From positions 70,902 through 134,901 of the IMG/VR virus record IMGVR_UViG_3300031998_000017: DNA of 64,000 bases. The stretch is one strand, 5' to 3'. Position 1 is the first letter of the stretch. Every line of letters begins with the position of its first letter. Of this stretch, positions 66-56,974 are shown one piece after another. Both the position numbers and the translations under genes were made by a program. This DNA is from a virus. Lineage: Duplodnaviria > Caudoviricetes. The notes beneath the pieces were generated by a model. That model was not told the DNA's origin and did not search any database. It saw only the letters and a list, made by a program, of their open reading frames with translations.

Positions 66-1727
66 ATGAATTATATGGCAATTATAAATTTATATCCACC
101 AGTGATTGATACTTATCAACCTGCGCAAATTAAGGGTTCTGCCTTAAGAATTTATTTTTCTATTTCAGATTATAATGTTTATAGTGAGATGAAAAATTTT
201 GCGCAAATTACTATATCTGACCAAGAGTCTAATTTATCAGTTTTAGATAAAACAAAATATCCTACTCAAATAATGTTAAAAACAATAAATATTGATAATA
301 CTAGAACTGTTGATAAATATTATGTAGATATAGCCACAACTGATGGAACCTTTGATATAGATAAATTTTATAAAGTTCAAATCAGATTTACTAGTTCAAC
401 AGCAACAGCAGTCAGTTTAACTACACCTCAAGCTATTGATGCTTGGCTTAGTTTAAATCTTGATAAATTTTCAGAATGGTCAAGAGTAACGTTAATTAAA
501 TGGATTGCGCAAAATTCTATTAGTATTAATGGAACTACTATTGGAATTAGCACTACAATTAATTTACCTGTGTCTGATGAAACTTTATTAGGTAAACTTA
601 CTTTTAATGAAAAAAGTGAAGAATATTTAAATAGTTATAGATTTAAACTATATGACGATGAAGAAAATTTACTTTTAGATAGTGATTTATTATATACAGA
701 TAAAAATTCTAATGATATAAATGAATTTTGATATAAATTAAAATATGGATTAACTGCTGGTGAAGATTATACACTTAATATTTATTATCAAACTAATAGT
801 TTATATAGTAGAGAATTAAATTGCACTATTTCAGCAACTGGTAGCACTGGTTCAGACCAAGGCTTTATATTTAGTGCTCATGAAAATATTGAAGATGGAG
901 AAATATTACTTCGTATAACAAGACCTCCACAAGCTACGTTTACAGGTAAAATAACAATTAAACGTTCTTGCGATAAAGATGCATTTACTATATGAGAAGA
1001 TATGCATACAGTAGATGTAAACGGGGTTACAAATTATTTATATGACTGAACAGACCAAACTGTTGAAAGTGGTGTGTTATATAAATATGCTTTATTAGAA
1101 ACTTATACTAGTAATAATAATGAAGTTAGTTATTGAAAAGATTATAATAAAATACTAATGATAGTATTGGATGATATGTATTTAGATGTGGCAGGACAAC
1201 AATTAAAAGTTCAATTTAATCCACAAGTTAGTTCATTCAAAAGAGTTATTAACGAAGGAAAAATTGAAACAATAGGTTCTCCATATCCTTACATAAGAAG
1301 AAATGCAGCAATCAATTATGCGCAATTTCCTATTTCAGGACTTATATCTTGTCAAATGGATGAAAATGAAAAATTTATTACAAAAGAAGCTTTATATGGC
1401 GGAAGAGAATTTTTAAGAAAATATGAACAATTTAATTCTTATGCTACTAATGAGCCTTTTGAAACTACTATTGGTAATGATTTTGTTTATGAAAAGAAAT
1501 TTAGAGATGCGGTTATGGCATTTTTAATGGATGGTAAAGTAAAATTATTTAGGTCAGCTTCTGAAGGTAATTACTTAGTTAGATTGACAGATGTATCATT
1601 TGCTCCTAATCAACAATTAGGTAGAATGGTATGGACATTTAGCGCAACCGCTAATGAAATTGCTGATAATACTATTGATAATTATTATAAATATAATATT
1701 TTAGAAGAGTATAAACCATCAGAGTAA
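66..1727 (+). CDS. Putative virion/tail-associated protein (553 aa with TGA=Trp)
   Basis: Track ORFs 66..731 and 1158..1727 are in frame; only 4 TGA (no TAA/TAG) lie between them, in Trp-like contexts (FTI*ED, YD*TDQTVESG); RBS AAGGAG. Function inferred from context only. Confidence 0.75.
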
Positions 1728-1738
1728 GGAGGTTGCCT

Positions 1739-3778
1739 ATGAAAAGAAATTATCCTTATTGAAATGATAAAGATTTTTTATATACAATAGATACTTTGCC
1801 AGTGTCAAATGAATATGTAAGAGTGATTGCACTAACTTGGGAAGATGAACCTATTCAAGAGATTCAAGGTTTAATTACAGATGGTAGTTTAACTATCAAT
1901 GGAGATTCTTCAATGCGTAGAGCAGTTAACTTTACTGCGGCCTTTCAAGATAATTCATTTGCGCAAATTACAGATGTAGATAATATATTTTCAATTAATA
2001 AAAGAATATATTTAGAAAAAGGAATTACCAATACAACAGGACAATACACTGACTATCCTATTATTTGACAACCTCTTGGCGAATATATCATTATAAATTG
2101 TAGTGTATCTCATGATGCGGGTAATGTTTCCGTTAGCGTGCAAGCGCAAGATAAAATGTGTTTACTTAATGGAACATGCGGAGGTACAATTCCTGCATCT
2201 ACACAATTAGACAGTTATGATACTCTTGATGAAAATGGAGATTGAATATTAACTAAACCAGTTGTTGCGCAAATTATTCGTGAAGTTGTAAATCACTTTG
2301 GCGGAGAGCAATTAAGTAAAATTATTATTAATGATATTGATAATCAAATAAAAGCGGTTATGCGTTGATTAGGAACAACTCCTATTTATTTAATTGAATC
2401 TCAAGGTCAAGCAACTTTAACAACTGTAACTCCTAGTAGTATGGTTGGTGTTAAAAAATATGAGTATGGGGATGACGTTGGATACATTTACACTGATTAT
2501 ATATATAATAAAGAATTAATTGCAAATCCTGGAGATAATGTTTGTTCTATATTAGACCAAATGGTTTCTTACCTAGGAGGTAATTATGAATATTTCTATG
2601 ATATATGAGGAAATTTTATATTTCAAGAGAAAAAGAATTATGTAAATATTTCTCATGCAGAAACAATACATATAAATACATTAATAAACGAAGATTATAA
2701 ATATGATATGTTAAGTGGTAAACGCGCTTTTGATTTTAGCAATTTACCAATATTTACTTCTTTTTCTAATAGTCCTCAATATAATAATATTAAAAATGAC
2801 TATGTAGTATGAGGGATGAGAAAAACTCCAGAAGGATTAAATATTCCTATTCGTTTCCATTTAGCTATTGACCAAAAACCAAAAACAGGAAATACATATA
2901 AAGTGTTTTTCTATACAGACCCAGATGATGGAATTGAAAAGGCACAAATGCCTGTTCAATATTCTAGTAAAAGTAATTTCCCTATGCAAGGAGCGGCTGG
3001 TGTATATTATGAAGATTCATCCAATGGTAAAATATATATATGAACATGGGTAGCTGCAGAGAATCCTGTAAATAGTAAATATGATTATAAAGAAATTGCG
3101 GATTATAGCAAATTTGAAAATATTACTACTACTGACTGACGTAGTGAATTATATTTACAAGGAGTAGCTGCAGAACCATTAGGTTTAAAATCTAATTTCT
3201 ATTATACAGAACTTGCAAATGAATGACCTAAATTATATAATTTACATACAGGAACTTGGAGACAAGAAGTAATAGATGACCCTAGGTCTGTTGATTATTT
3301 CTTAGATTTCATTGATGATAGCGCAGCAGTAGGTAAGTTTAGCATAAGCAATATAGGGCGTAGGTCTATGGTAGAAAGCAAAGATGATTTTAATTGTGTT
3401 TTTGAAAATGTTATTCCTGACTATGTTTTAATTGAAAACGGTCAAGATGATACTTATGCAAAGAGAGAAGATTGTATTAAACGTAATCAAGCATATATAC
3501 AAATAGATAGCAGTATATATAAAGGTTTAGGACTTGGAGGAATATATAATAGCTGTTTTAATGAAATTAAAATGTTATTATATGAAAAAACAGGGTATAA
3601 CGAATCTATTCAAATGAACTGTTTACCAATTTATCATCTTGAACCTAATATTCGTATAGGCGCTAAAGATATATCAAGTGATATCTATGGTGATTATATG
3701 TTAAAATCAATGACAATACCTCTACGTGCAGGTGGAACGATGTCCATTAGCGCAACTAGAGTTACTGAGAAATTATAA
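1739..3778 (+). CDS. Putative tail/baseplate-associated protein (679 aa with TGA=Trp)
   Basis: RBS AAGGAGG, ATG 1739; track ORFs 1796, 2816 and 3368 are all in this frame; 9 in-frame TGA, first TAA at 3776-3778. Confidence 0.75.
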
Positions 3779-3909: not shown

Positions 3910-4416
3910 TTATTCTCAATTTATCTCATTATTGTCTTGAGCTTGATATTGCGCTAATCCTATACATATAGCATCAGCTTCATCATCATTAACTTTAATG
4001 TAATATTTATTTTGAACAAATTCAACATCTGCTTCTTTTAATGTCATACGTTTGATACCACGTCCATTTTTAATTCCAAGAGAAGCGCGTCAAGAGCTAG
4101 GATAAATATAATCAATATCTACGCCAGGCATTTCATCATGAATTCAAAAAGCAACAGCAGCTTGTAATCACATTAGCGCACGATGGGTCTTAAGATTCCC
4201 TACCCCATATCCACCTTCAGGTCTTACTTCTTCCACTACTATTTTAGATGGAGTAAAATGTGTTGTTACAGTTTTTAATTCTTTAACTATTTTTTCTATT
4301 CTATTGATTAAGTCTGTTGAGGATGCAGTTATACACCCATGTGCAATTAATTGACCATCTTCAAAAAATGCTCAACCTGTTGATTTAGTTGATAAATCTA
4401 AACTTAGTATATTCAT
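3910..4416 (-). CDS. RuvC-like Holliday junction resolvase (168 aa, TGA=Trp)
   Basis: MNILSLDLSTKSTG*AFF N-terminal motif (TGW), VVEE, C-terminal DDEADAICIG; missed by the track because of TGA codons. Confidence 0.8.
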
Positions 4417-5570
4417 TATATTGTCATCTCCTGGCTACCATCTTCTGATGTTACTTTTATAAGTTCAACAAATTTCTTTTTATATTTATTTCCACCATTT
4501 AAGTAATCATATCTTCCTTTACTAATAGGGAATGGAAATTTCTCGCCTGAATCTGGTATCTTGTTTAAACTTATGTCTCTTAAATGGCATTTTTGATATT
4601 CATCTGTTGCTTTAACTCAGTATAATGCTTTTAATTCTTCTTGATATTTTGATTTACCAGGCGCTAATAATTTATCTCAACTATCTTCTTTAGGTTTATA
4701 TTCAAATTTAAATTCTTTGTTCGCAATTTTATCTACGACATCTCTTAAATTAGAACAATCAAATTCAAGAGTTATAGAATTAGTATCGTCTAAACCTATT
4801 TCTTTAAATACAGGGATAGGCGTTACAACAACAGGAACCCCTAAATTTAATGCCTCTACTATTGAATAACAATAGCCTTCATTATCAGATAATTGAACTA
4901 AGAAATCTGCTTGTGATATTTCGTTTATTATATCTAATTTTGGTTTTTTGATATGCATATGTGGACTTAATTTTTGATTTATAGTTCTATTTGAGTAGAC
5001 ATCTCAATCATAATCAACACCAAGTTTATCAAGAGCATCAGCTAATTGAGCCATGCGGTTTCCGCCTTTTTCCACAGATAGGCGAGTAGCGCTGATTAGT
5101 TTTAGCTTATGGTGAGGTTTATCTGGTGCAAATGGATTATAGCACAACTCTGCGTCTTTACCAGTTACTCTTTTTCAAGCATCACATACTTGTTTAGATA
5201 TCCCTATATATTTAGTAATTTTAGCATGTCCAGGGAAGTTTTCTCTTAATAGTTGATGACGATTAAGCATATCTTCGTAGTCACCATGCAATACTAAATA
5301 ATATCCATCAGTAGCTTCTACATTTTCTATAATATCTGTATTAAAATTAAAGAAGGCGCGAGTACATTTAAATTTCATACCAGGCATGTATTGAATACAT
5401 CTAACGTATTCACGTAATCTTTCTAATTGTTTTGGGTTACCTTGTTGATATACTATTGTTAAATCATAGTCTTTATATTTTTTAGCCAGATAATAAAAAA
5501 ATGTTTCAATTCCGCCAATCTCTAATATAGAGTGGAAGTAATATAAATTGGTTGTTTTTATTGTTTCCAT
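4416..5570 (-). CDS. Glycosyltransferase, GT-B/GT4-like (384 aa, TGA=Trp)
   Basis: Joins 5175..5570 and 4677..4958; GGIETF, RLSVEKG, EGYCYSIVEALNLGVPVV motifs; stop overlaps next start (TAATG). Confidence 0.85.
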
Positions 5571-6769
5571 TAGTTACCCCTTTCTTTTGATACCTCTCCT
5601 CTGTCGTATCTACGAGTCAAACTATCTTTTCTAATATTATAATAATATATAATGTTTTTACTAAATCCTATTGTAAGGTCTGGAATTTTAAATACTTTCT
5701 CTCAAAATTCATTTTCTTCTCCAACATTTAATTTATTATTAAATCTAATGTTTTCAAATATTCTTTTTTTAAATAAGCAACCTCATGGGGCTATATTAAT
5801 TTGTTTTGTTGAATTCACTATTGCTTGGCCATATGTACTATCTCAACTTAACCAAGTTAAATCATTGTGCTTTTTAGCTTCTTCTATAATTGTAAAAGCA
5901 TAATTTTCTAATATTTTATCATCACAATCTATAAAAACTATATAATCTCCTGTTGCGGCATCCAACCCTACGTTTCTAGACCCTGGGCCTCCAAGATTTT
6001 TTGGATTTTTAATATAGATGTCAACCATTTTAGAAAGTTTATCTCCATCTCTACTATCATCTACTAATATTAATTCAGTATTTGTTCCTTTTCTTTGTTT
6101 ATTTAATTCTTCTATAAGATTTTTAGTTAAATCATAAGTTTTATAATAAGGAATAATAATACTAATTTTTTCTTGAGGAGGTTGTAATTTTCTTATAAAT
6201 TCTTCATATTCATAAGGATAATCTATATCGTCTGTGCCATCTAAAATTTTTACATATCTATTTGTAATATGATGTTCTTCATAAGGAAGATTATTCATGC
6301 AACGATAAATTTCTCAACCAATACAACGATGAATTTGTTGTGTTAAATAAAGATTTTTAACTATCTTTTTACAATCATAGAAAAATTTTTTATTTACAAT
6401 TTTAATCGCAAATATTTCTCATTCATGACCAAAATATAATACATCATCTGTAGGAGTGTTTACTATTGTTTTAATTGCATTTTCAGTATAATAAACATCT
6501 CCATACAGATAACATATAGGTTCATTTGTGTTTATTTCTTCAAACCTATCAATTTCACAATCATGATAAGATTGTTCCATTGTTAAGCCGTATTGAGCAT
6601 AACAATTATTGGCGCATGTAATAATATAATCGGTTGCACCATTTTCTTTTAATAGTCTAGTTGTTCTACCTAATAAAGTTTCTCCATTTATTTCAATTAA
6701 ATGTTTTGGTATCCCGAGGTAATTATTCCAGCGGGTACCAGCTCCAGCCGCCATAATAATATATTTCAT
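5570..6769 (-). CDS. Nucleotidyltransferase-GT2 glycosyltransferase fusion (399 aa, TGA=Trp)
   Basis: IIMAAGAGTRW...PKHL NTP-transferase N-terminus in frame through TGAs with SIIIPYY...LVDDS...RNVGLDAATGDYIVFIDCDD GT2 domain. Confidence 0.85.
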
Positions 6770-14091: not shown

Positions 14092-14631
14092 TTATTTACT
14101 TCTGCTTAATTTTAAGTCTTGCAAATCTAATTCGCGTTCATTATCAAAAACTTTATATTCAAAAGGAATATCTTGAAAATCTTCCTCATCTGTCATATAA
14201 CGTCTACATATCTCTGCACAATCTGGATTTTCTTCTCTTTTAAGTGCGCGGATAAGTCTAGTTTTGTCTGTCGCTTGAACATATACAGGATGCACATCTA
14301 ATCTATCATCTTTTAACATATTAACAATACCTGATATATTAAATACACCTACGTTAGTTTTATCTGGGTCTAATCCGTCAATAGGAGTACCATAAAACCA
14401 ATTGCGGAAGATAGTTGTTTCCAACATATCTCCACTAATTGTTTTTCTAGTAAATTCATCTTCGGTTAAGAAGAAATAGTCTACTCCTTCTTCTTCATAA
14501 TCTCTTTTAGGGCGTGTTGTGCAACTAACCACTTTATGATAATTAGTGTTTTGGTCTAACATCATTTTTTGTAGTGTATCTTTACCAGCGGCGCTTTTAC
14601 CGAATAGTGCAATTATTTTTATTTTATTCAT
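14092..14631 (-). CDS. gmk: Guanylate kinase-like protein
   Basis: GKSAAGKDT P-loop, SCTTRPKR, GVDYFF, YGT. Confidence 0.88.
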   Translation of the reverse strand: MNKIKIIALFGKSAAGKDTLQKMMLDQNTNYHKVVSCTTRPKRDYEEEGVDYFFLTEDEFTRKTISGDMLETTIFRNWFYGTPIDGLDPDKTNVGVFNISGIVNMLKDDRLDVHPVYVQATDKTRLIRALKREENPDCAEICRRYMTDEEDFQDIPFEYKVFDNERELDLQDLKLSRSK

Positions 14632-17600
14632 CTGACATAACCCCCTCTCTATCGTGAGTAAGTTCTACATTTCCTTTCTCATCAATAGATGTTATCTTAT
14701 ATAATTGATGGAAACCTGTATTCTTATAAGTTTTTGCTACAAATGTATCATCTCTGCGGAACCCCGCTACTAACAATTTGACACCTCTTGTAAACCAACC
14801 TTTTTCAGTTACATGCTTTGTTCCATCTTCTCCCATTTCACTTAATTGTCTATTATACATTGTAAAATAATCTTTTGTAAATTTAACATTTACTACACCT
14901 GTTGGAGTTAATAATGTTACAGATGAACGTGTATCATTCTTACCTATAACTGTTCCAACTATTTTATGTATTCTATAAATCGGTAGTTCGTGTCCATTTC
15001 TTTTAAAATATGTGTCAACAATAGGTTCACTAGGAAGTGAATCAAAATCTATAACACCATACTTACTTTTATTAATATGCGCTAATTCATGCTCATGATA
15101 ATAGAAACATAATGCTTCCATTTCATACGCGCTAATGTTACCTAACGCATATTTATCCCAACATTCTTTAAATAACAAGTCATTAAAATCTCTCAATATT
15201 TGACTTTGATTATCTCTAATCCAATCACGCGCACTATCCATTTGCGCCTGATAAATTTTTTCCCATCTGTCTTGTAAGATACAAGTTAATCCATTTATTA
15301 TTTCTAACTGGTCAGAGTCAAAATACTTATTATAAAATTCTTCACATTCGCTATCAAAGACATAATACTTTCCTGTCTTTTTATTTGCTTTTAAATACTT
15401 TGTGAACAAGAATGTTTTCTTTTGCAAATCTAATTCACTAGGAACTAAATTATGTTGTATTAAACCATTAAAGTTTTGTAAAGTTATTCTTTTCTTTGCT
15501 TCACACACTTTTGAGATATAATATGCCATAACCGCCATACGAGGTTCAATACCTAATTCTTTTCCTAAATCTATTTCTAACTTATCAAAAGCTCCTGCTT
15601 TAATCAAACTAAACATTGCGCTTTTGTTAAGTGGACATCTTGCCATAAAATCTTGTATACCGCTATATGGACGGTTCGCAATAATCTGGTCGATAATCGG
15701 ACCTCCAACATTATTTAATGCTTTCATACCAAATAAGATTTCATTATTTTCTACATCTGGTTCAAAACTATATGATGATTTATTTATATCAACTAAACTA
15801 ACTCTAATTCCTCTTGATATAATATCACCAATAGCTTTTGCTATTTTACCATAATCAGTTCCGCGCTCTTTCTTTTCTACATTTCCTTCTTCATCTTCTT
15901 CAAACTCATCACCATCTTCAAGACTACCACTATTAACTACTAAACACGCTGTGTTCCAATAGATAGGATTCCATCTTGTTGCAATATACATTGTTTGAAA
16001 ACCGATGAAACTATATGCTAATGCGTGGATGATACTAAATGAATATCCCATCTGAGGACCGATACCACATGTCCATACATAATTGCCTAAACATGGAGAT
16101 TTAGCTTGATTTAATACCTTTTGACGAAGTTCAGGTATCTTACTCATTTGTTTCTTACCAACAACTTTACGTGCTGCGTTCGCTTCTGCTAATGTAAATC
16201 CACATATATTCTCATCCATTAACATCTTCATTAATTGTTCCTGACTTGGCGGAACTCCATATGAAGTTTTAAAATATGGCTCTAATGTTTTTTGCTCCGC
16301 TTGAGTTAAACCATATTCGCGCATTTCTTTATACCACAATGAGATATCATTCTTAAATCTAATATATTTTTCCATTGGAGTTTCTTGACCTTTTTCTGCT
16401 GTCATTAATCTCATTAATCCATTTGCGTCTGCCATTTCTAACATTGACCCCGGCTTAATTTTCTTAGCCGCTTGTCCGCCAACATCACTATCAAACTGGA
16501 AGATATTTAATACACTATTCTCTTGAAGAACTTTCCATATATCTTCATCATCAATAGGCAATACACTTGGGTGAAAATACTTATCATAAATTTCTCTTAA
16601 TGTCAAGTCACTCTCAATTTCACCATAATCTTGCAACATTCTGATTGCTTCTGCTAATTTATCTTGAACTTCTGTTACTAAGAAATCATACTTTGTCATA
16701 CCACATGCTTCACACATATGTAGGTCATATGATGTGATTACTTCACCTCTTGGAGTTCTCATAAATGTTCCAAATTCATATGGGTCTTCATCAAATAAGA
16801 TAACTCCTGAAGCATGTGAACTTCTTTTATTTATCAATCCTTCAATTCCGTCCATTATATCTAATAGACCAGGATATAAATTTACTTCATTTATAAATGT
16901 TTTAATTGGCTTACGACCTTTATCTTCATTCCCATTTATAACATCTGCAAGAGGCCATAAGAATCCACGTTCACTTGGGATAAGTGAACTTAAATATTGC
17001 GCTGTATCAACATCTATTCCATCTGGATACTCTTCACTACGATAACCGCGGCATGCAGTTAAGATTGTTGAACGAGTTCCTTCTGTTCCAAATGTTGCTA
17101 TTAATGTACATCCTAAATTCTTACGACTTAATTCATCTATATCACTCTTGAAGTTTTGTCCTCTTTCTTTTTTAATTTCATTTAATATCTTAGGACGCTT
17201 ACTTGGACATAAATCTAAGTCAATATCACCTAATTCTACACGTTCTTTATTTAAATAACGCCAGAATGGAAGTTCCCATTTAATTGGGTCAAGCTGTGTA
17301 ATACCTAATAGATAGTGATTCAAACCTGAACAACTTGAACCACGTCCTGCTCCTACGATACTTCCGCAATTCCAAAACAAATCAACATAGTGCTGTAAAG
17401 TTACTGGATATGCAAACATATTTGTTCCTAACTTACCACTAATTGTTCTTTTAATATCTGCCTCTTCCTCAAGTCTACTCAAATATGTTTCATTATACAA
17501 ATCTTTTGTGATTAATTTATTAACACATTCATTAACCCAATATCTTTCAATTTTGTCATCAGACATATACATACTATTTAATATTGGATAATCTTTTAAC

Positions 17601-18583
17601 TGGTCTGTTTTACCATATTCTTTTACTTCAACTTGCGGAATAGTTTGCGCATGTGCTAAACTATACTTTTCTATTTTATTCCAAATTTCATAACTATTTT
17701 CAAACATTTGTTCAACGAACTCATTATCAAAACCAGATGCTGCCAAATGTTCTTTAATTTCATCATTTGTTTGAAGATATGCAAATTCATAGAACTCATC
17801 TACTTCACGCTCTCCAAACTTACTGTTAAGATATGCTTTATGAACATATCTATCTTCTTTTTTAAGATAATGCGCATCTGACCCTATTACCATTTTCAAA
17901 TCAAATGCTTTTGCAATAGCAGGAAATCTTTTATTAACTAAAACTTGTTCTCTTGATGTTCCTGGTGCACATTCTATATAAAAGTTACCTTCTCCAAACA
18001 CTTCTTTACCCCATAATAAGAAGTTTACTATATTATTATGTGCGATTGCCGCACCATTTGTATCCCCCGTTTGTTCTGCTGTAATAAGCGCCAATGTATT
18101 AACACTCAACTCTCCTCCTAAACATGCTGTTGTTGCTATCAAACTGTTAGGATACTTTTTCATTATTTCTTCAATATCACTTTTTAATGTTGGGACTCTT
18201 TCAAGACCTCTATCCCAATAACTATTCATCCACGCTCTTGATGATAATTCTCTCAATACTCTATGACCTTCTTTATTTTTTGCAATCAAAATAAAGTGAT
18301 AATATCTTTGCCCCATATCACGCGTGTCTGTTAAATATATTTCATTTCCTAATGCTATTTTAAAATCAGGATTCTCTTTCTCTACTTCAGATTGATAAAA
18401 GTTTATCTCTGGATGAGAGGATACACATTCATGGTCAGTTATTGCGATACCTGATAACCCTAATTCAATAGCTCTGTTGATTAAATCTTTAGGTCTATTG
18501 ATTGAGTCAAGCAAACGCAAATTACTATAATGTGTATGTGAGTGAACTTCAAATCTATTTCCCATTTTTTCCTCCTTTTCCAT
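14624..18583 (-). CDS. dnaE: DNA polymerase III alpha subunit
   Basis: PHP domain HSHTHYS, AITDH, SDAHY; GAGRGS, DIDLD, HASGV, KYDFL. Confidence 0.95.
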   Translation of the reverse strand: MEKEEKMGNRFEVHSHTHYSNLRLLDSINRPKDLINRAIELGLSGIAITDHECVSSHPEINFYQSEVEKENPDFKIALGNEIYLTDTRDMGQRYYHFILIAKNKEGHRVLRELSSRAWMNSYWDRGLERVPTLKSDIEEIMKKYPNSLIATTACLGGELSVNTLALITAEQTGDTNGAAIAHNNIVNFLLWGKEVFGEGNFYIECAPGTSREQVLVNKRFPAIAKAFDLKMVIGSDAHYLKKEDRYVHKAYLNSKFGEREVDEFYEFAYLQTNDEIKEHLAASGFDNEFVEQMFENSYEIWNKIEKYSLAHAQTIPQVEVKEYGKTDQLKDYPILNSMYMSDDKIERYWVNECVNKLITKDLYNETYLSRLEEEADIKRTISGKLGTNMFAYPVTLQHYVDLFWNCGSIVGAGRGSSCSGLNHYLLGITQLDPIKWELPFWRYLNKERVELGDIDLDLCPSKRPKILNEIKKERGQNFKSDIDELSRKNLGCTLIATFGTEGTRSTILTACRGYRSEEYPDGIDVDTAQYLSSLIPSERGFLWPLADVINGNEDKGRKPIKTFINEVNLYPGLLDIMDGIEGLINKRSSHASGVILFDEDPYEFGTFMRTPRGEVITSYDLHMCEACGMTKYDFLVTEVQDKLAEAIRMLQDYGEIESDLTLREIYDKYFHPSVLPIDDEDIWKVLQENSVLNIFQFDSDVGGQAAKKIKPGSMLEMADANGLMRLMTAEKGQETPMEKYIRFKNDISLWYKEMREYGLTQAEQKTLEPYFKTSYGVPPSQEQLMKMLMDENICGFTLAEANAARKVVGKKQMSKIPELRQKVLNQAKSPCLGNYVWTCGIGPQMGYSFSIIHALAYSFIGFQTMYIATRWNPIYWNTACLVVNSGSLEDGDEFEEDEEGNVEKKERGTDYGKIAKAIGDIISRGIRVSLVDINKSSYSFEPDVENNEILFGMKALNNVGGPIIDQIIANRPYSGIQDFMARCPLNKSAMFSLIKAGAFDKLEIDLGKELGIEPRMAVMAYYISKVCEAKKRITLQNFNGLIQHNLVPSELDLQKKTFLFTKYLKANKKTGKYYVFDSECEEFYNKYFDSDQLEIINGLTCILQDRWEKIYQAQMDSARDWIRDNQSQILRDFNDLLFKECWDKYALGNISAYEMEALCFYYHEHELAHINKSKYGVIDFDSLPSEPIVDTYFKRNGHELPIYRIHKIVGTVIGKNDTRSSVTLLTPTGVVNVKFTKDYFTMYNRQLSEMGEDGTKHVTEKGWFTRGVKLLVAGFRRDDTFVAKTYKNTGFHQLYKITSIDEKGNVELTHDREGVMSDE

Positions 18584-18612
18584 CTTATAATAATATTATA
18601 TCATTTTTTTAA

Positions 18613-20869: not shown

Positions 20870-22621
20870 TTAAAACAAATATTTACCTGAACCTACTACT
20901 TCATAATCTTCTACAAATAATTGTGGAGTTCTTATTCCATTTCATTCATTTATATTACATTTTCCTACTGCGTTGATTGATATATAAGCCGTATCAAATT
21001 CTTCAAATGTTTCACAATCTTTATCAGTAGCATTAAATATCATTAAACTTATTTTATTTTGTAATGTTATTTTTAATGTATTACTTGTTTTTCTATAAAC
21101 TGTTACCATATCTTTACTAACTTTTAAATTTTCTATTGCGATATATGGTTCATCCATATCTTTTCCCCATAAATCACTAAGACTAGCAATAGTAAGAATA
21201 TCATTAGCTTGAACGTCTGCTCCTGTGTAGATATAGTCTACATAATATACTGGCTCTGCGGAAATGCTTGCTAATGCTGCGTCAGTCTTGGTTAAGAACT
21301 CTTGAACCGCCTCTGCCGCCAAACACATACCAAATGCATTTTCATGTCCCTGGCACCATTCCGCCCCAGACTCTTCGCATATAGTCTTAAAATTAGTTAT
21401 ACCAGTCATTTCATATCCGCGCGCACTGCCTTGATATCCCTCTGGAGTATCAAATAATATGCAACATGGACGTTGATATTTATTAGCTAACTTATTTGCT
21501 ATAAGACCTGCTATATTTCTATCTATTGCTCCGCTATCAAGAGTAAACAATATAACTTTATGGTCAAGTAGATTGTCAGACTTCATCTGTCTTTCTAAAT
21601 CTTCCATAGCTTTATCTTGTTCTCTTGTCTGTCTATTCTTTACATTATTAGAAGTTCTAATTGCTTGGTCAACTATTCTTTCCATTTCACCAGGCGCATG
21701 TCCGCGCTTAGTAGATGGAACCATTTTAAAAGCTTCATACTTAAGCATTGACTTAAATAGCAATTCTTTTTCTTCTATTGTTCCACTACGTTGAACTGCA
21801 TTAACTAGGGGAACTATATAAAAGGCTGCTCCTATTGAAGTAAGGTGCTCACCTAATTTAAACTTATTTTTTTGCCATGACTCATATAGATATGGGTTAT
21901 GAATATTTTCAGGTTCAAAACCTTTTGTTATAATATGTTTTGTTTCTATTGATGTTAGGCTCATCATATCTCCGCAGTTACCTAAAGCTACTAGGTCTAT
22001 ATAATTATCTGCGTTGTTACCGCCTAATTGTTGGTCTAAGTATCTGCAAAATTGCCATACTATACCAACTCCTGAAAAATCTTTATTACTATAATCACTT
22101 AATTGATTATTTATAACTATTGCATATTCACTTACTTTATTAGCTAAGTGGTGGTCTAAGATAATAATATCTTTACCTTGACCTTTAAGTGTCAAATGCG
22201 CATCATAATCATTGGAACCAGCATCTGGAACTATAATTAATTCAAAATCTCTATAATTGATATAGTCCATACAATCATTAATTCCATGCTGTTTTCCTTC
22301 GTGCACCCATCACTTTAAGTTATTTTCAACCCAAGCAGGGAATAAATCATGAAGATAGTTAATTAATACTGCGGATGCGGTAAATCCATCGCAATCGCAA
22401 TCTACTATTACTAAAGCATTATCATTATTTTTAATGTGAGTAAGAAGCGTTCGAGCTGCTTTCACTAGACAATCTTGCCCAAGCGCCTCTGGTTTATTTA
22501 TATCTGCATCTGTTGTATTTAGATAATGCGCAACTTCTTCATAAGGGATATTTCTATTTGTTAATATTTGTTCTATTGTATTATATAATGGATTAATAGG
22601 TTTTATTAATTTGTATTGCAT
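20870..22621 (-). CDS. recJ: RecJ-like DHH ssDNA exonuclease (583 aa, 2 TGA=Trp)
   Basis: DCDCDG, LDHH, GSARG, GHENAFG; track ORFs 22310..22621 and 20942..22306 are joined by one TGA; C-terminal NE*NG..TPQ. Confidence 0.88.
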
Positions 22622-22633
22622 TATCTATTTCAC

Positions 22634-44918: not shown

Positions 44919-45327
44919 GGGGTCGACTTGGTTTCGACTGGAGAAGGAAAGCATTAGAATACAAGTAGTAGGCAGTTACTTAAAAGGCATTATCAAAAAT
45001 AAATGGAAACATTTTAACAAAAATTGCTAATAAAGTTAAATCTTTATTCTCTTTCAACAGAGTTTCATTCGCGTAATGTTAAGCAGCTTCTAAGTAAGTA
45101 TCAGTGCAATCAGAGAAAACTTAGTCGTATTAACTTCAAGGATTGCTATTGTGTGTCAGTTACTATGCCAACCGCCACAATATCTATTTTTGCATAGCCG
45201 GCTCTTAAGATTGATATTTGGTAGAGAGTTTGAGTTCCTATGAAATATACAAAACTTGTAAGGTAAGAATGAGATTTCTAATGAATACTTTTTTAGGACA
45301 TGGGTTCAATTCCCATCGGCTCCACCA
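44919..45327 (+). ncRNA. ssrA: tmRNA
   Basis: GGGGTCG...GGTTTCGAC 5' end, T arm and CGGCTCCACCA 3' end with G3.U; internal tag ORF GNILTKIANKVKSLFSFNRVSFA*. Confidence 0.92.
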
Positions 45328-49511: not shown

Positions 49512-50192
49512 ATGAAAAAAATACTAATGCTATTAGTAGTTATTAGTATGTTCGTAACTAGTAGTGCTTTTGCAGATAGTCAACAATATCATTTTGTTGT
49601 AAAACACATTTTTGATAGCACTGAAATAACAACAGTAGATGAATATGGTGCTGCTGGTTCAGAATATACTATTCAACCACTAACTAATCAAGAGATAGAT
49701 GGATATGATGATGGAATTTGAGAAGTTGCATATACAAGTATAGATGGCGGAAATTCTCAAATAGAAGAAAATTATGATAGTGTAATACTTTGACCTACAC
49801 GCGCATCTACAATTACTTTAATACCAGATGATACTGTTGTAGAATATCACTATGTGTTTAGTAAAAATGTTCATGTAATATATGAATGAGAAGGAGCACC
49901 TGAAAGTGTATCTTTACCTATTGATGAATATGGTTATAAAGATGGCGCATACACCAAAGAAACAGTAAATATAGACGAAACTTATAAAGCAGGAGATGTA
50001 GTTGAAGAAGATAATTATCTATATACATTTTCCGGCTGGACAAAAAACAAAAAAAATAATAAAATAATTATAATAAATGGTAATTGGGATAGAATTGAAA
50101 AAGAAATTGAGGAGGAACCAATAGTAGAAGAACCTATTATAATTCCACCAAAAGAAGATTATGTCCCAGAGCCACCACATACAGGCATTTAG
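49512..50192 (+). CDS. Secreted surface-protein-like polypeptide (226 aa, 3 TGA=Trp)
   Basis: Signal peptide MKKILMLLVV...AFA; YTFSGW adhesin-repeat-like motif; Pro/Glu tail ending PPHTGI; TAG overlaps the tRNA start. Confidence 0.7.
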
Positions 50193-50286
50193 GGGCTTAG
50201 TGTAATGGTAGCACAGCGGTCTTCAAAACCGTAAAGACGGGTCTCCAAAACTCGGGGTGTGGGTTCGAATCCTACAGCCCCTGCCA
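50191..50286 (+). tRNA. tRNA-Trp(TCA), UGA-decoding, with a second CCA anticodon arm in the variable region
   Basis: AGGGGCT/AGCCCCT acceptor, G73, CCA; GCGGT-CTTCAAA-ACCGT followed by CGGGT-CTCCAAA-ACTCG. Confidence 0.88.
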
Positions 50287-50413
50287 TTTAAAAAATAAAG
50301 GTTAATTGGAAATAGTTATTAATATGAAGCAGCTCTTATGAGTGATTGCACGAAACTGAACCGCTTCCGACGGGGAACTGACAGCTGAAGTATGATATAA
50401 CTAGCCTTTTTAT

Positions 50414-54461: not shown

Positions 54462-54683
54462 ATGACACTAGAACAATTAAAAACTGCATCACTAGTTGAT
54501 TTAATGACATATGTAGATAAAGCTAACGATAAAGCTGAAATTAACTGTATTATATTTGAATTGGCATGCAGAACATATGTTCCTTTCTCAGGAGTTAACT
54601 TTGATGATTTACTATTATCATATGGTTACCAAAAACCTGTAAAAGAAAATAATAAAGGAACAGCAAGAAAAATTAATAAATAG
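54462..54683 (+). CDS. Hypothetical protein
   Basis: ORF between tRNAs with G-rich RBS. Confidence 0.6.
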   Translation: MTLEQLKTASLVDLMTYVDKANDKAEINCIIFELACRTYVPFSGVNFDDLLLSYGYQKPVKENNKGTARKINK

Positions 54684-54712
54684 AGCAATATAAGCGAATT
54701 GAATGATATTAT

Positions 54713-54797
54713 GGGAGTGTAATCCGTTAAGGAGACGGGGCAGACTGTAAATCTGTTGTTAGCGCTCGAGTGGGTTCGATTCCCTCAACTCCCACCA
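54713..54797 (+). tRNA. tRNA-Tyr(GTA)
   Basis: GCAGA-CTGTAAA-TCTGT, CCA. Confidence 0.88.
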
Positions 54798-54827
54798 TAA
54801 GTTATTCAAAAATAAGATGGCGCGTTA

Positions 54828-54869
54828 TCCTAGTTTACAGCAAATTATTGCTATTGAAAAAATCTAGGG
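54828..54869 (+). ncRNA. CAGCAA stem element E7 (minimal)
   Basis: TCCTAG/CTAGGG stem, ACAGCAA at 54837. Confidence 0.5.
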
Positions 54870-55096
54870 CGTATTTAATAAAAACTTAAAGTGTAGACTA
54901 AGTGGCAATCAAGTCGCGGGAGGCGGATTAGCCGACCACCGCCGCAAGGTTAAAACGAAAGTGCAACTCTGGTAACGGAATGTCCCTTGTGAGGAAATCT
55001 AACTTGACCTAAGCTGCAAGATTATTTTTATTAAAGCCATCTAATTTTTTTGACAAAAAGGAAAAATTTTGATATAATAAATATATAAAAATGAAA

Positions 55097-55274: not shown

Positions 55275-55414
55275 ATTTTTCATTCAATTCCCTTTCCGGG
55301 CTCTACTATGCTTTAGTAGAGCTCTATTTTTATTTGTTGACTTTTTTTAAAAATTATTATATAATATATATGTATTAAAAATAAATCTTGAAAAAGATTA
55401 AAGGAGGAATTACA

Positions 55415-56974
55415 ATGGGAAATACATTATTACAATCTTTAATAGAAGATAATAACTACAAGCGCACAGAAAATGGTGCAGTAGCTCAAAAATCTACATT
55501 AAACGCAATATATGACTTATTTGCATTAGGCGGAGCATATAGAACTCGTTCAGATGATGACTGTATCTTCTTATTTAAAAAAGCATTTGAAGCTGATAGA
55601 ACATTAGCTATGAAATGTTTATTCTATCTTCGTGATATTCGCGGTGGTCAAGGTGAAAGAAGATTCTTTAGAGTTTGCTTTGATTGGCTAGCTAAAGAAT
55701 ATCCAGAAGTAGCATTTAAAAATATCGACAATGTACCAGAATATGGTAGATGGGACGATTTGTATACACTAGTTGGTTCACCTCTTGAAGCAGATGTATT
55801 TGACTTTATGAAAGCACAACTTATGAAAGATATACATTCATATGATAGAGGAGAAAAAGAGGGAGTATCACTTTTAGCTAAATGGTTAAAATCTGAAAAT
55901 ACTTCATCTGTTGAATCTAAGAAACTAGGTAATTTAACTAGAAAATGGTTCCGTCTAAGCCACAAATCATATAGACAAATCTTATCTAGATTGAGAAATA
56001 GAATCAACATTGTTGAAACACTAATGTCTCAAAATAGATGGGACGAAATAGAGTTTGAAAAGTTGCCATCAAAAGCTGGTTTAATATACAGAAACGCATT
56101 CGCGCATAATGATGTTACAGCTGAAAGATATGCAAACTTCATGACAGATAAAGATACTAAGGTTAATGCCGGAACTCTTTATCCATATGATATTGTTAAC
56201 AAAGTAACTAACAAACTAAGCTGGAGAAGCCTAAATCTTGATGCTGTTGAAAGAGCAACAATCAACAAATATTGGGAAAATCAAATTGATTATTTCAATG
56301 GCGCTGATTGCAAAATGCTAGCAGTAGTAGATACATCAGGTTCAATGGATAGCTCTTATGGAACTTCTGTTAAACCTATTGATGTAGCTATCTCTCTAGG
56401 TATGTATTGCGCTGAACGCATTCAAGGTGCTTTCCATGGTTATTACATTAGCTTCGCTAGCAGACCACAACTAGTTGCTGTAAACGGAGTAGATTTCTGT
56501 GATAAGGTTAAAAGAATTTACGAAACGAATCTTTGCGACAACACTAACTTAATTGCAGTATTCGACTTACTTTACAATAAAGTAACTAGCGGACAAGCTA
56601 GAGTTGAAGACTTACCAGACAAACTTGTAATCATTTCCGATATGGAAATTGACCAAGGATGTGGTTACTACTGGAATAACAACGGTAGCGCAATTACTGA
56701 TATGGAACGCGTTAGAGCTAAATGGGAAAGAGCAGGATTAAAAATGCCACAACTTGTTTATTGGAATGTAGCAGCAAGACATGACACAATCTTAGAAGAT
56801 GCTAATAATCAAGATATAACATTTGTATCTGGATGCTCACCAGTTATCTTCAAATCTGTTCTAACAGGTAAAACATCTATCGACTTAATGCTAGATATAT
56901 TAAACAGCGAAAGATATTCAAGAGTCGAAGGTGAAGCTGAAGGCGGATATCCATCAATGTATATACATAAATAA
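55415..56974 (+). CDS. Ro60/TROVE-related protein with C-terminal vWA domain (DUF2828-like)
   Basis: RTENGA, LFYLRDIRGGQGERR, YGRWDDL, AKWL, vWA MIDAS VVDTSGSM, ISDME, VYWNV, VSG.SP. Confidence 0.85.
   Translation: MGNTLLQSLIEDNNYKRTENGAVAQKSTLNAIYDLFALGGAYRTRSDDDCIFLFKKAFEADRTLAMKCLFYLRDIRGGQGERRFFRVCFDWLAKEYPEVAFKNIDNVPEYGRWDDLYTLVGSPLEADVFDFMKAQLMKDIHSYDRGEKEGVSLLAKWLKSENTSSVESKKLGNLTRKWFRLSHKSYRQILSRLRNRINIVETLMSQNRWDEIEFEKLPSKAGLIYRNAFAHNDVTAERYANFMTDKDTKVNAGTLYPYDIVNKVTNKLSWRSLNLDAVERATINKYWENQIDYFNGADCKMLAVVDTSGSMDSSYGTSVKPIDVAISLGMYCAERIQGAFHGYYISFASRPQLVAVNGVDFCDKVKRIYETNLCDNTNLIAVFDLLYNKVTSGQARVEDLPDKLVIISDMEIDQGCGYYWNNNGSAITDMERVRAKWERAGLKMPQLVYWNVAARHDTILEDANNQDITFVSGCSPVIFKSVLTGKTSIDLMLDILNSERYSRVEGEAEGGYPSMYIHK

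Follow-up and report, generated by a model that had tools for sequence, protein, structure and literature searches.

A five-arm tRNA in a phage tRNA array

The DNA analysed here, referred to as the window, is a stretch of 64,000 nucleotides at the end of an IMG/VR virus record of 134.9 kb (IMGVR_UViG_3300031998_000017; estimated completeness 89%, G+C 31%). The phage, of ~135 kb and from the cattle gut or rumen, resembles the 'Agate' phages. An array of 27 tRNA genes and one transfer-messenger RNA (tmRNA) gene, as called by ARAGORN, lies between 43.1 and 54.8 kb of the window, and one member of this array is our subject: a 96-nt tRNA-Trp(UCA) with two anticodon-type arms in tandem. It is the only one of the 28 ARAGORN genes with a tca anticodon, in agreement with an initial annotation of the window that had picked it out as the sole full-length UCA tRNA. 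An ordinary tRNA-Trp(CCA) follows downstream, and most related loci likewise have a normal tRNA-Trp(CCA) beside the double-arm tRNA; the spacer in the window, previously put at about 130 nt, is 127 nt long.

The molecule has a 7-bp acceptor stem, a D arm of class I type (4-bp stem, 7-nt loop), two arms of exactly 5 bp and 7 nt separated by a linker, a T arm with a 5-bp stem, and an encoded CCA end (Table 1). Arm 1, in the anticodon-arm position, carries the UCA anticodon. Arm 2 occupies the position of the variable arm, and its loop is a copy of the tRNA-Trp anticodon loop with an intact CCA. The two loops differ solely at the wobble base and both stems pair, as the initial annotation had noted; arm 1 has a terminal and arm 2 an internal G-U pair. 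Two complete tandem anticodon-type arms followed by a normal T arm, G73 and CCA, also described there, are confirmed by the sequence, by ARAGORN, by Rfam and by folding. ARAGORN labels the gene 'tRNA-SeC(tca)', 96 nt. The Rfam tRNA model RF00005 scores 61.6 bits against a threshold of 29 over model positions 1-71, with arm 2 accommodated as an insertion of 23 nt in the variable region. The five-arm cloverleaf is the minimum-energy fold; its folding-energy z-score of -0.84 is unremarkable, which is usual for a single tRNA and uninformative. Judging from its position and from standard tRNA architecture, the final U of the GGGU linker would pair with A15 in the tRNA core. The molecule has the long arm of a class II tRNA together with a class I D arm, rather than the D arm with 3-bp stem and long loop that accompanies the long arm in class II.

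In bacteria, tryptophan identity is set by C34-C35-A36, a major element, together with G73 and A1-U72, plus G5-C68 (PMC9976931). At the acceptor end, A1-U72, G5-C68 and G73 are all present in the window tRNA, and A1-U72 is found in 14 of 14 relatives. The decoding arm reads U34-C35-A36, so that an intact CCA is offered by arm 2 only.

Table 1 Features of the tRNA-Trp(UCA) locus and of other genes and RNAs in the window.
Feature	Position	Strand	In-frame TGA	Basis or remark
Whole tRNA-Trp(UCA), opal suppressor, five arms	50191-50286	+		96 nt, CCA end encoded; ARAGORN, Rfam, folding
Acceptor stem	50191-50197 with 50276-50282			Sequence read; A1-U72 is 50191 with 50282
D arm	50200-50214			
Arm 1, decoding anticodon arm, GCGGT-CTTCAAA-ACCGT	50216-50232	+		ARAGORN, Rfam placement; TCA at 50223-50225
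5' linker AAAGA, between arms 1 and 2	50233-50237	+		Sequence
Arm 2, variable-arm position, CGGGT-CTCCAAA-ACTCG	50238-50254	+		Sequence, covariation; CCA at 50245-50247
3' linker GGGU	50255-50258	+		Sequence; G and U nearly invariant among 14 aligned relatives
T arm	50259-50275			
Discriminator G73	50283	+		Sequence
CCA end	50284-50286			
Spacer between the two Trp tRNAs	50287-50413	+		127 nt
Ordinary tRNA-Trp(CCA), short variable loop	50414-50487	+		ARAGORN, Rfam
Tail-like protein	1715-3775		9	
RuvC-like resolvase	3913-4434	-	5	PHROG families 827 and 159
Glycosyltransferase-like protein	4419-5573	-	4	
DNA polymerase	14627-18595		0	
RecJ-like exonuclease	20873-22624	-	2	
tmRNA	44919-45327	+		Rfam, 84.8 bits
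OLE-like RNA	54664-55056	+		Rfam, 85.1 bits against a threshold of 50
tRNA-Tyr	54713-54797			Overlaps the 5' part of the OLE-like match
RNA-binding protein	55388-56971	+	0	528 amino acids; PHROG 850, E = 1.5e-124

Conservation of the second arm and a glutamine counterpart

A first scan of viral contigs, in which both anticodon-type loops and the T loop were fixed in an exact pattern, returned at least 15 further contigs from many metagenomes that match the both-loop pattern. In all five stems (acceptor, D, arm 1, arm 2 and T) these contigs depart from the sequence of the window tRNA, with pairing intact. In an alignment of 14 distinct sequences and 26 pairs, standard pairs fill 98.6% of the cells and two-sided (compensatory) changes occur at 14 of the pairs; none of 500 shuffles reached the observed values, and slid controls paired in 35-49%. 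Two-sided changes affect three of the five pairs in the arm-1 helix. In arm 2, the outer pair is CG in five relatives, GC in five, AU in three and UA in one, and the next pair is GC in six, CG in three, GU in three and AU in two. RNAalifold independently gave the same five arms. It is this comparison across relatives, not the energy of a single sequence, that takes the evidence beyond chance. Because independent copies covary, a collapsed assembly or a fresh duplication is excluded, which bears out the earlier argument that the double arm is neither a fresh duplication nor an assembly slip; the search of related phages for the double arm and for covariation that had been suggested along with it found both, in 14 distinct relatives. 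In a collection of 50,697 isolate-phage records, BLAST with the tRNA returned half-molecules of ordinary tRNA-Trp only, and no cultured phage there showed the double arm at that sensitivity.

A second scan placed no constraint on the variable region (TCTTCAAAA and the T loop, 28-40 nt apart). ARAGORN recognized at least 61 distinct long-arm tRNA(UCA) among the results, and 47 of 61, among the matches listed, have TCCAW in the variable arm. These 47 have a 7/5 structure, G73 and mostly A1-U72, and in each of them the TCCA lies in the variable-arm loop. The other 14 are tRNA-Sec-like, with 5' ends such as GGAAG and GGGAG, a 6-bp D stem, and variable-arm loops unrelated to CCA. A hairpin search made without ARAGORN and with the loop unspecified found at least 51 distinct mimic hairpins at no fewer than 62 loci. 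Among the matches listed, their 7-nt window begins with any nucleotide and continues with U, C, C and A in all 51, then A (49) or U (2), and then A (47) or C (4). The stems are 3-7 bp long, mostly 5 bp, and all differ in sequence; the linkers are typically 4-5 nt on either side of the extra arm. D arms vary within the family, and some distant members have class-II-like ones (L021, L036, L108). In the variable regions of 136 distinct ordinary class II tRNAs (Ser, Leu, Tyr) from the same phage loci, neither TCCAW nor the corresponding glutamine motif TYTGA occurs. Conservation thus lies in an anticodon-loop look-alike, including the U33-like and A37-like positions; this loop is strongly selected, whereas the stem need only pair.

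Trp-type mimic tRNAs also occur in gut bacterial assemblies, with about 12 matches to the pattern. One lies on a 1.48-Mb contig of an isolate, Bacteroides neonati MS4, probably in a prophage; others are in bins assigned to Coriobacteriia, Oscillospiraceae, Treponema and Bacilli. The remaining matches in bacterial genomes, the majority of those to this biased pattern and mainly from Caulobacteraceae and Bryobacterales, were set aside as genuine tRNA-Sec in which UCCAA occurs by chance.

A parallel is found in amber suppressors. With the variable region again left free (TCTCTAAAA, then 24-40 nt, then the T loop), 57 of 69 distinct long-arm tRNA(CUA), among the matches listed, have T-Y-T-G-A, the anticodon loop of tRNA-Gln (CUG or UUG), in a variable-arm hairpin, and five more of these 69 matches have near variants of it. 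Examples are CACGG-CUCUGAC-CCGUG in L140 and the loop CUUUGAC in L181; some of the Gln-type stems are just 2-3 bp long. Six of the 69 listed matches have class II bodies (Ser-, Leu- or Tyr-like), and none of these six has a mimic. Across the sequences compared, the mimic thus tracks the amino acid expected of the suppressor, with CCA accompanying UCA (TGA to Trp) and YUG accompanying CUA (TAG to Gln).

The last of the 69 listed matches, on an IMG/VR contig (L226), is a 93-nt tRNA that combines a Trp-like body and G73 with a CUA anticodon and the variable-arm loop GUCCAAA. As a separate observation, tRNA-CUA-44 of Seki et al., which is near-identical to it, gave strong UAG suppression (56,217).

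UGA decoding and a probable role of the second arm

Open reading frames of at least 100 codons in the window number 96 (22,384 codons) under genetic code 4 and 68 (16,485 codons) under code 11. Recoded codons cluster in a subset of genes, namely those for the tail-like protein, the resolvase and the glycosyltransferase; those for DNA polymerase and RecJ have few or none. In the RuvC-like resolvase, four TGA codons (21, 89, 115 and 173) align with Trp columns that are invariant, or nearly so, among 14 full-length homologues, and the fifth falls on a variable column. The position of these codons on conserved Trp columns means that TGA is read as Trp here. The phage of the window therefore recodes TGA to Trp, and the 96-nt tRNA, in which a UCA anticodon meets in-frame TGA codons aligned with Trp, is its opal suppressor.

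Activity of this very molecule has been published. tRNA-UCA-3 of Seki et al., from Cattle_ERR2019356_scaffold_1348925, is identical to positions 50191-50286 of the window (10.1101/2025.10.30.685624). In E. coli extract it was the most active UGA suppressor and served as the UGA positive control, with a signal of 58,947 on UGA (5,403 without tRNA; 69,124 for wild-type sfGFP), 2,486 on UAG (2,182 and 65,658) and 735 on UAA (625 and 67,159) (10.1101/2025.10.30.685624). Mass spectrometry showed insertion of Trp by 13 of 13 tested tRNA(UCA), and the text of that paper does not list which 13 these were (10.1101/2025.10.30.685624). We sorted the tRNA(UCA) entries of Seki et al. by architecture into 13 with a CCA arm and 12 credible short-loop tRNAs. 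All 13 CCA-arm tRNAs are active (26,699-58,947; median 48,745); the median of the 12 short-loop tRNAs is 8,653 (Mann-Whitney p = 2.4e-4), and only two of these 12 pass one quarter of the wild-type signal (28,797 and 50,795). The second arm goes unmentioned in Seki et al. (10.1101/2025.10.30.685624) and in Borges et al. (10.1101/2021.08.26.457843). We found no description of a second anticodon-like arm in the literature, our coverage of which excluded most subscription journals, so that a prior description is possible.

The enzyme that charges this tRNA was sought in the phage. The TrpRS/TyrRS Pfam family (tryptophanyl- and tyrosyl-tRNA synthetases) has no match in the 134.9-kb record, and trpS has none in 15 other whole mimic-bearing records, ten of them at least 90% complete. 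Since the phage lacks a TrpRS, the host enzyme must charge the 96-nt tRNA. Searched by tblastn with three bacterial TrpRS queries, 119 long-arm loci (1.08 Mb) gave no match, and 119 short-loop loci (1.11 Mb) gave three (L318, L353 and L370). In L318 (4432-5524) the TrpRS gene lies 84 nt from a short-loop tRNA(UCA) with A73, the discriminator that the HF2 pair of Seki et al. also has; the distance is 2.6 kb in L353 and L370, which share a short-loop tRNA(UCA) with G73. All three neighbourhoods resemble the 'code-change operons' of Jade phages. A further short-loop tRNA (L322) shares a 23-kb contig with a TrpRS gene (L286). A TrpRS is thus nearby or on the same contig for 4 of 48 short-loop tRNA(UCA) loci versus 0 of 62 mimic loci (Fisher p = 0.034). 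A search from the TrpRS side was uninformative: none of its 18 viral loci, mostly in records of 400-600 kb, has a tRNA(UCA) within 10 kb. Two phage TrpRS from 'code-change operons' are known to be partnered by short-loop tRNAs that E. coli leaves uncharged (10.1101/2025.10.30.685624). There appear to be two strategies: a phage either supplies its own synthetase along with a private tRNA or relies on that of the host and equips the tRNA with a spare cognate anticodon loop.

The spare arm is probably an identity handle for the host TrpRS. This interpretation is the best supported of those considered, and it draws on the glutamine parallel, the lack of a phage TrpRS and the published pattern of activity. 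Arm 1, in the anticodon-arm position, reads UGA on the ribosome. Arm 2 stands in for a variable arm and replicates the anticodon stem-loop found in normal tRNA-Trp (N-U-C-C-A-A-N); in it, the anticodon-binding domain of the dimeric TrpRS would find an intact CCA loop. Arm 2 would thereby restore affinity or identity lost with the change of C34 to U, with G73 and A1-U72 supplying the signals at the acceptor end. The contact between TrpRS and arm 2 and its geometry, as we infer them, would involve non-canonical docking, perhaps on the anticodon-binding domain that is left free in the TrpRS dimer or in an initial capture step, and the unusually long linkers would permit such freedom. TrpRS and GlnRS are both class I enzymes that read the anticodon, and in each case the cognate anticodon is the one copied, which points to aminoacylation. 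We lean, by a little, towards a more general identity device of phage suppressor tRNAs: a variable-region hairpin would present the anticodon loop of the corresponding sense tRNA, CCA for Trp and CUG or UUG for Gln, and anticodon-reading host synthetases would thus still charge a molecule whose own anticodon now matches a stop codon.

Several observations weigh against a role of the second arm in charging. (i) The suppression data all come from intact RNA. The contrast in activity between CCA-arm and short-loop tRNAs is confounded by relatedness and by other identity elements, and the two active short-loop tRNAs indicate that TrpRS can accept U34 even where the arm is lacking. (ii) The variable arm leaves the tRNA core far from the site of the anticodon loop. 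With the 2-3-bp stems of some Gln-type mimics the loop cannot reach the normal position of the anticodon, so that another mode of docking is needed. (iii) The contrast in co-occurrence with TrpRS is one of four against zero only. (iv) A Trp-like tRNA(UCA) of 98 nt on an IMG/VR contig (L090) has a 29-nt variable region without a CCA loop, and is the single exception among the Trp-type long-arm tRNAs in the matches listed. (v) Class II suppressors without a mimic are expected for Ser and Leu because SerRS and LeuRS ignore the anticodon; TyrRS reads it, and the Tyr-like bodies therefore do not fit. (vi) The scans depended on fixed words for the anticodon loop and the T loop, and the counts are among the matches listed.

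The conserved part of arm 2 is a full anticodon-loop look-alike, which any protein that recognizes such a loop could bind. The target might then be an anticodon-loop modification enzyme, a host anticodon nuclease or defence sensor for which the arm is a decoy, or a regulator that senses tRNA-Trp. The phage has a large tRNA array and a tmRNA, and large tRNA arrays are common in phages that face attack on their tRNAs. Binding by a factor of this kind does not, however, predict either the match between mimic and amino acid or the restriction of mimics to suppressors. Neither the normal tRNA-Trp next to it nor any of the 136 class II tRNAs has the mimic; moreover, recognition by MiaA requires A36-A37-A38, which the Gln-type loops do not have. 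We consider such a factor an unlikely explanation. Two readings that apply to CCA alone, namely pairing of the arm with GG in the D loop and imitation of the tRNA 3' end, were also considered, and the YUG of the Gln-type mimic argues against both.

A conformational switch would require that either arm can stack under the D stem, with the CCA arm serving for charging and the UCA arm for decoding, or with both UGG and UGA being read. The exact anticodon-arm geometry of arm 2 in the subfamily of the window would suit this, and the flanking linkers of 4-5 nt could act as hinges. We nevertheless regard a switch as quite improbable: the extra stems range from 3 to 7 bp, and down to 2-3 bp among the Gln-type molecules, in contrast to the constant 5 bp of anticodon stems; no precedent is known for an arm between the D and anticodon stems; through wobble, UCA can read UGG as it is, and the gene for a normal tRNA-Trp(CCA) lies at a distance of 127 nt; and ARAGORN, the Rfam model and RNAalifold all assign arm 1 as the anticodon arm. 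Processing, in which ~22 nt would be excised or a hybrid arm formed to give a normal-length tRNA that times read-through, draws on the two units (A, arm and 4 nt), which look like a 22-nt tandem repeat and agree at 12 of 22 positions. The 5' strand of arm 1 would then have to pair with the 3' strand of arm 2; such a helix is paired in just 65.7% of cells, with the outer two pairs broken in 11 of the 14 sequences, while each arm covaries separately. The in-vitro transcript is active in E. coli extract, in which we know of no such splicing activity. With the hybrid helix not conserved across the 14 sequences, we rejected the excision or hybrid-arm model and take processing to be highly improbable.

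We attach almost no weight to a neutral duplication relic, an assembly artefact or a genuine tRNA-Sec. Relic and artefact run counter to the independent, covarying contigs from many metagenomes. A tRNA-Sec would account for the ARAGORN label 'tRNA-SeC', the long variable arm, the UCA anticodon and G73. Against it stand the TGA codons on conserved Trp columns and the mass-spectrometric incorporation of Trp for tRNAs of the same class; the 7-bp acceptor, 5-bp T and 4-bp D stems are also at odds with the 13-bp branch (8/5 in bacteria) and 6-bp D stem that tRNA-Sec requires, and the tRNA-Sec-like group found by the same scan looks different.

The initial annotation had offered two readings. Its opal decoder of Trp identity, keeping the CCA arm as a variable arm, gains support from TGA on Trp columns, from UGA suppression and from the strong selection on the CCA loop; the recruitment of host TrpRS by this arm, which it had raised as a possibility, is the leading interpretation here. 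Origin of the extra arm by arm duplication, which was part of that reading, is possible, and a point that bears on it is that the variable-arm stems of 3-7 bp in the family sit on quite different tRNA bodies. The other reading, a switchable or processed RNA that times read-through, is not supported; the hybrid helix between the arms is not conserved.

Other features near the locus were noted in passing. Two close relatives (L012 and L014) conserve the 127-nt spacer that separates the two Trp tRNAs, and one hairpin in it shows a compensatory change, CTCTTATGAG versus CCATATGG; the spacer has no Rfam match and may encode a small structured RNA. In the same two relatives a normal-length tRNA(CUA), labelled 'Pyl' by ARAGORN, lies beside the double-arm tRNA(UCA) (L012:138-214 and L014:3898-3974), whereas the array of the window itself is without a tRNA(CUA). 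The tmRNA has the tag ANKVKSLFSFNRVSFA, and the same or a close tag occurs in related loci L004, L007 and L008. An Rfam match to ornate large extremophilic (OLE) RNA aligns well over its conserved 3' half (~54830-55056); its 5' part is mostly gaps and overlaps a tRNA-Tyr. A phage-borne OLE-like RNA would be unusual. Directly downstream of it and of the tRNA array is the gene for the protein assigned to PHROG 850, 'RNA-binding protein'.

Relation to known systems

Synthetases that read the anticodon tie the amino acid to its codons, and by a long-standing rule this makes codon reassignment hard. If the role proposed here for arm 2 is true, a molecule with one anticodon for the synthetase and another for the ribosome would be a natural way round that rule, with a 'charging anticodon' separated from a 'decoding anticodon' in one molecule. 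It would then explain how one small gene, without a phage synthetase, could move a host with the standard code to code 4 or code 15, and why phages that recode nearly always turn TGA into Trp or TAG into Gln. For synthetic biology, the arm would constitute a portable module for efficient suppressor or reassignment tRNAs that depend on anticodon-reading enzymes. For annotation, such genes are routinely mislabelled tRNA-Sec or tRNA-Pyl, or dropped as low-confidence.

Mycoplasma and Spiroplasma, which use code 4, have a tRNA-Trp(UCA) in tandem with a tRNA-Trp(CCA) and read UGA as Trp. The locus in the window is alike in that a UCA tRNA-Trp adjoins a CCA tRNA-Trp where UGA means Trp. The tRNAs of these bacteria have an ordinary short variable loop and are served by their own co-evolved TrpRS, whereas here the host enzyme is unadapted and the tRNA carries a spare CCA loop. 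Phage suppressor tRNA(UCA) described previously, like that of the window, read UGA as Trp in a standard-code host (10.1101/2021.08.26.457843; 10.1101/2025.10.30.685624). Borges et al. suppose that the host TrpRS is 'intrinsically susceptible' (10.1101/2021.08.26.457843); in its place we propose a conserved structural element as the reason for charging.

Long variable arms are known from other tRNAs. In class II tRNAs (Ser, Leu and bacterial Tyr) and tRNA-Sec the arm serves as an identity element for the synthetase (PMC9976931), the same role that we propose here. The size and orientation of the class II arm matter, not its loop sequence, whereas the tRNAs described here combine an invariant loop sequence and a freely varying stem with linkers of 4-5 nt and a Trp-like body of class I. 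The allo-tRNAs and selC* tRNAs of Mukai et al. (PMC5389517) likewise have long variable arms, some with UCA, and also occur in phages and metagenomes. They have 8/4 or 9/3 branches and Ser or Cys identity, with Trp unmentioned (PMC5389517), in contrast to the 7/5 structure and Trp identity of the window tRNA. Hairpins that copy a cognate anticodon loop and are bound, outside a tRNA, by the anticodon-binding domain of a synthetase are known from the E. coli thrS operator and from yeast synthetase mRNA mimics (PMC6542539; PMC9976931). Those mimics lie in mRNAs and control translation, whereas the mimic described here lies inside a working tRNA, where it is proposed to promote charging.

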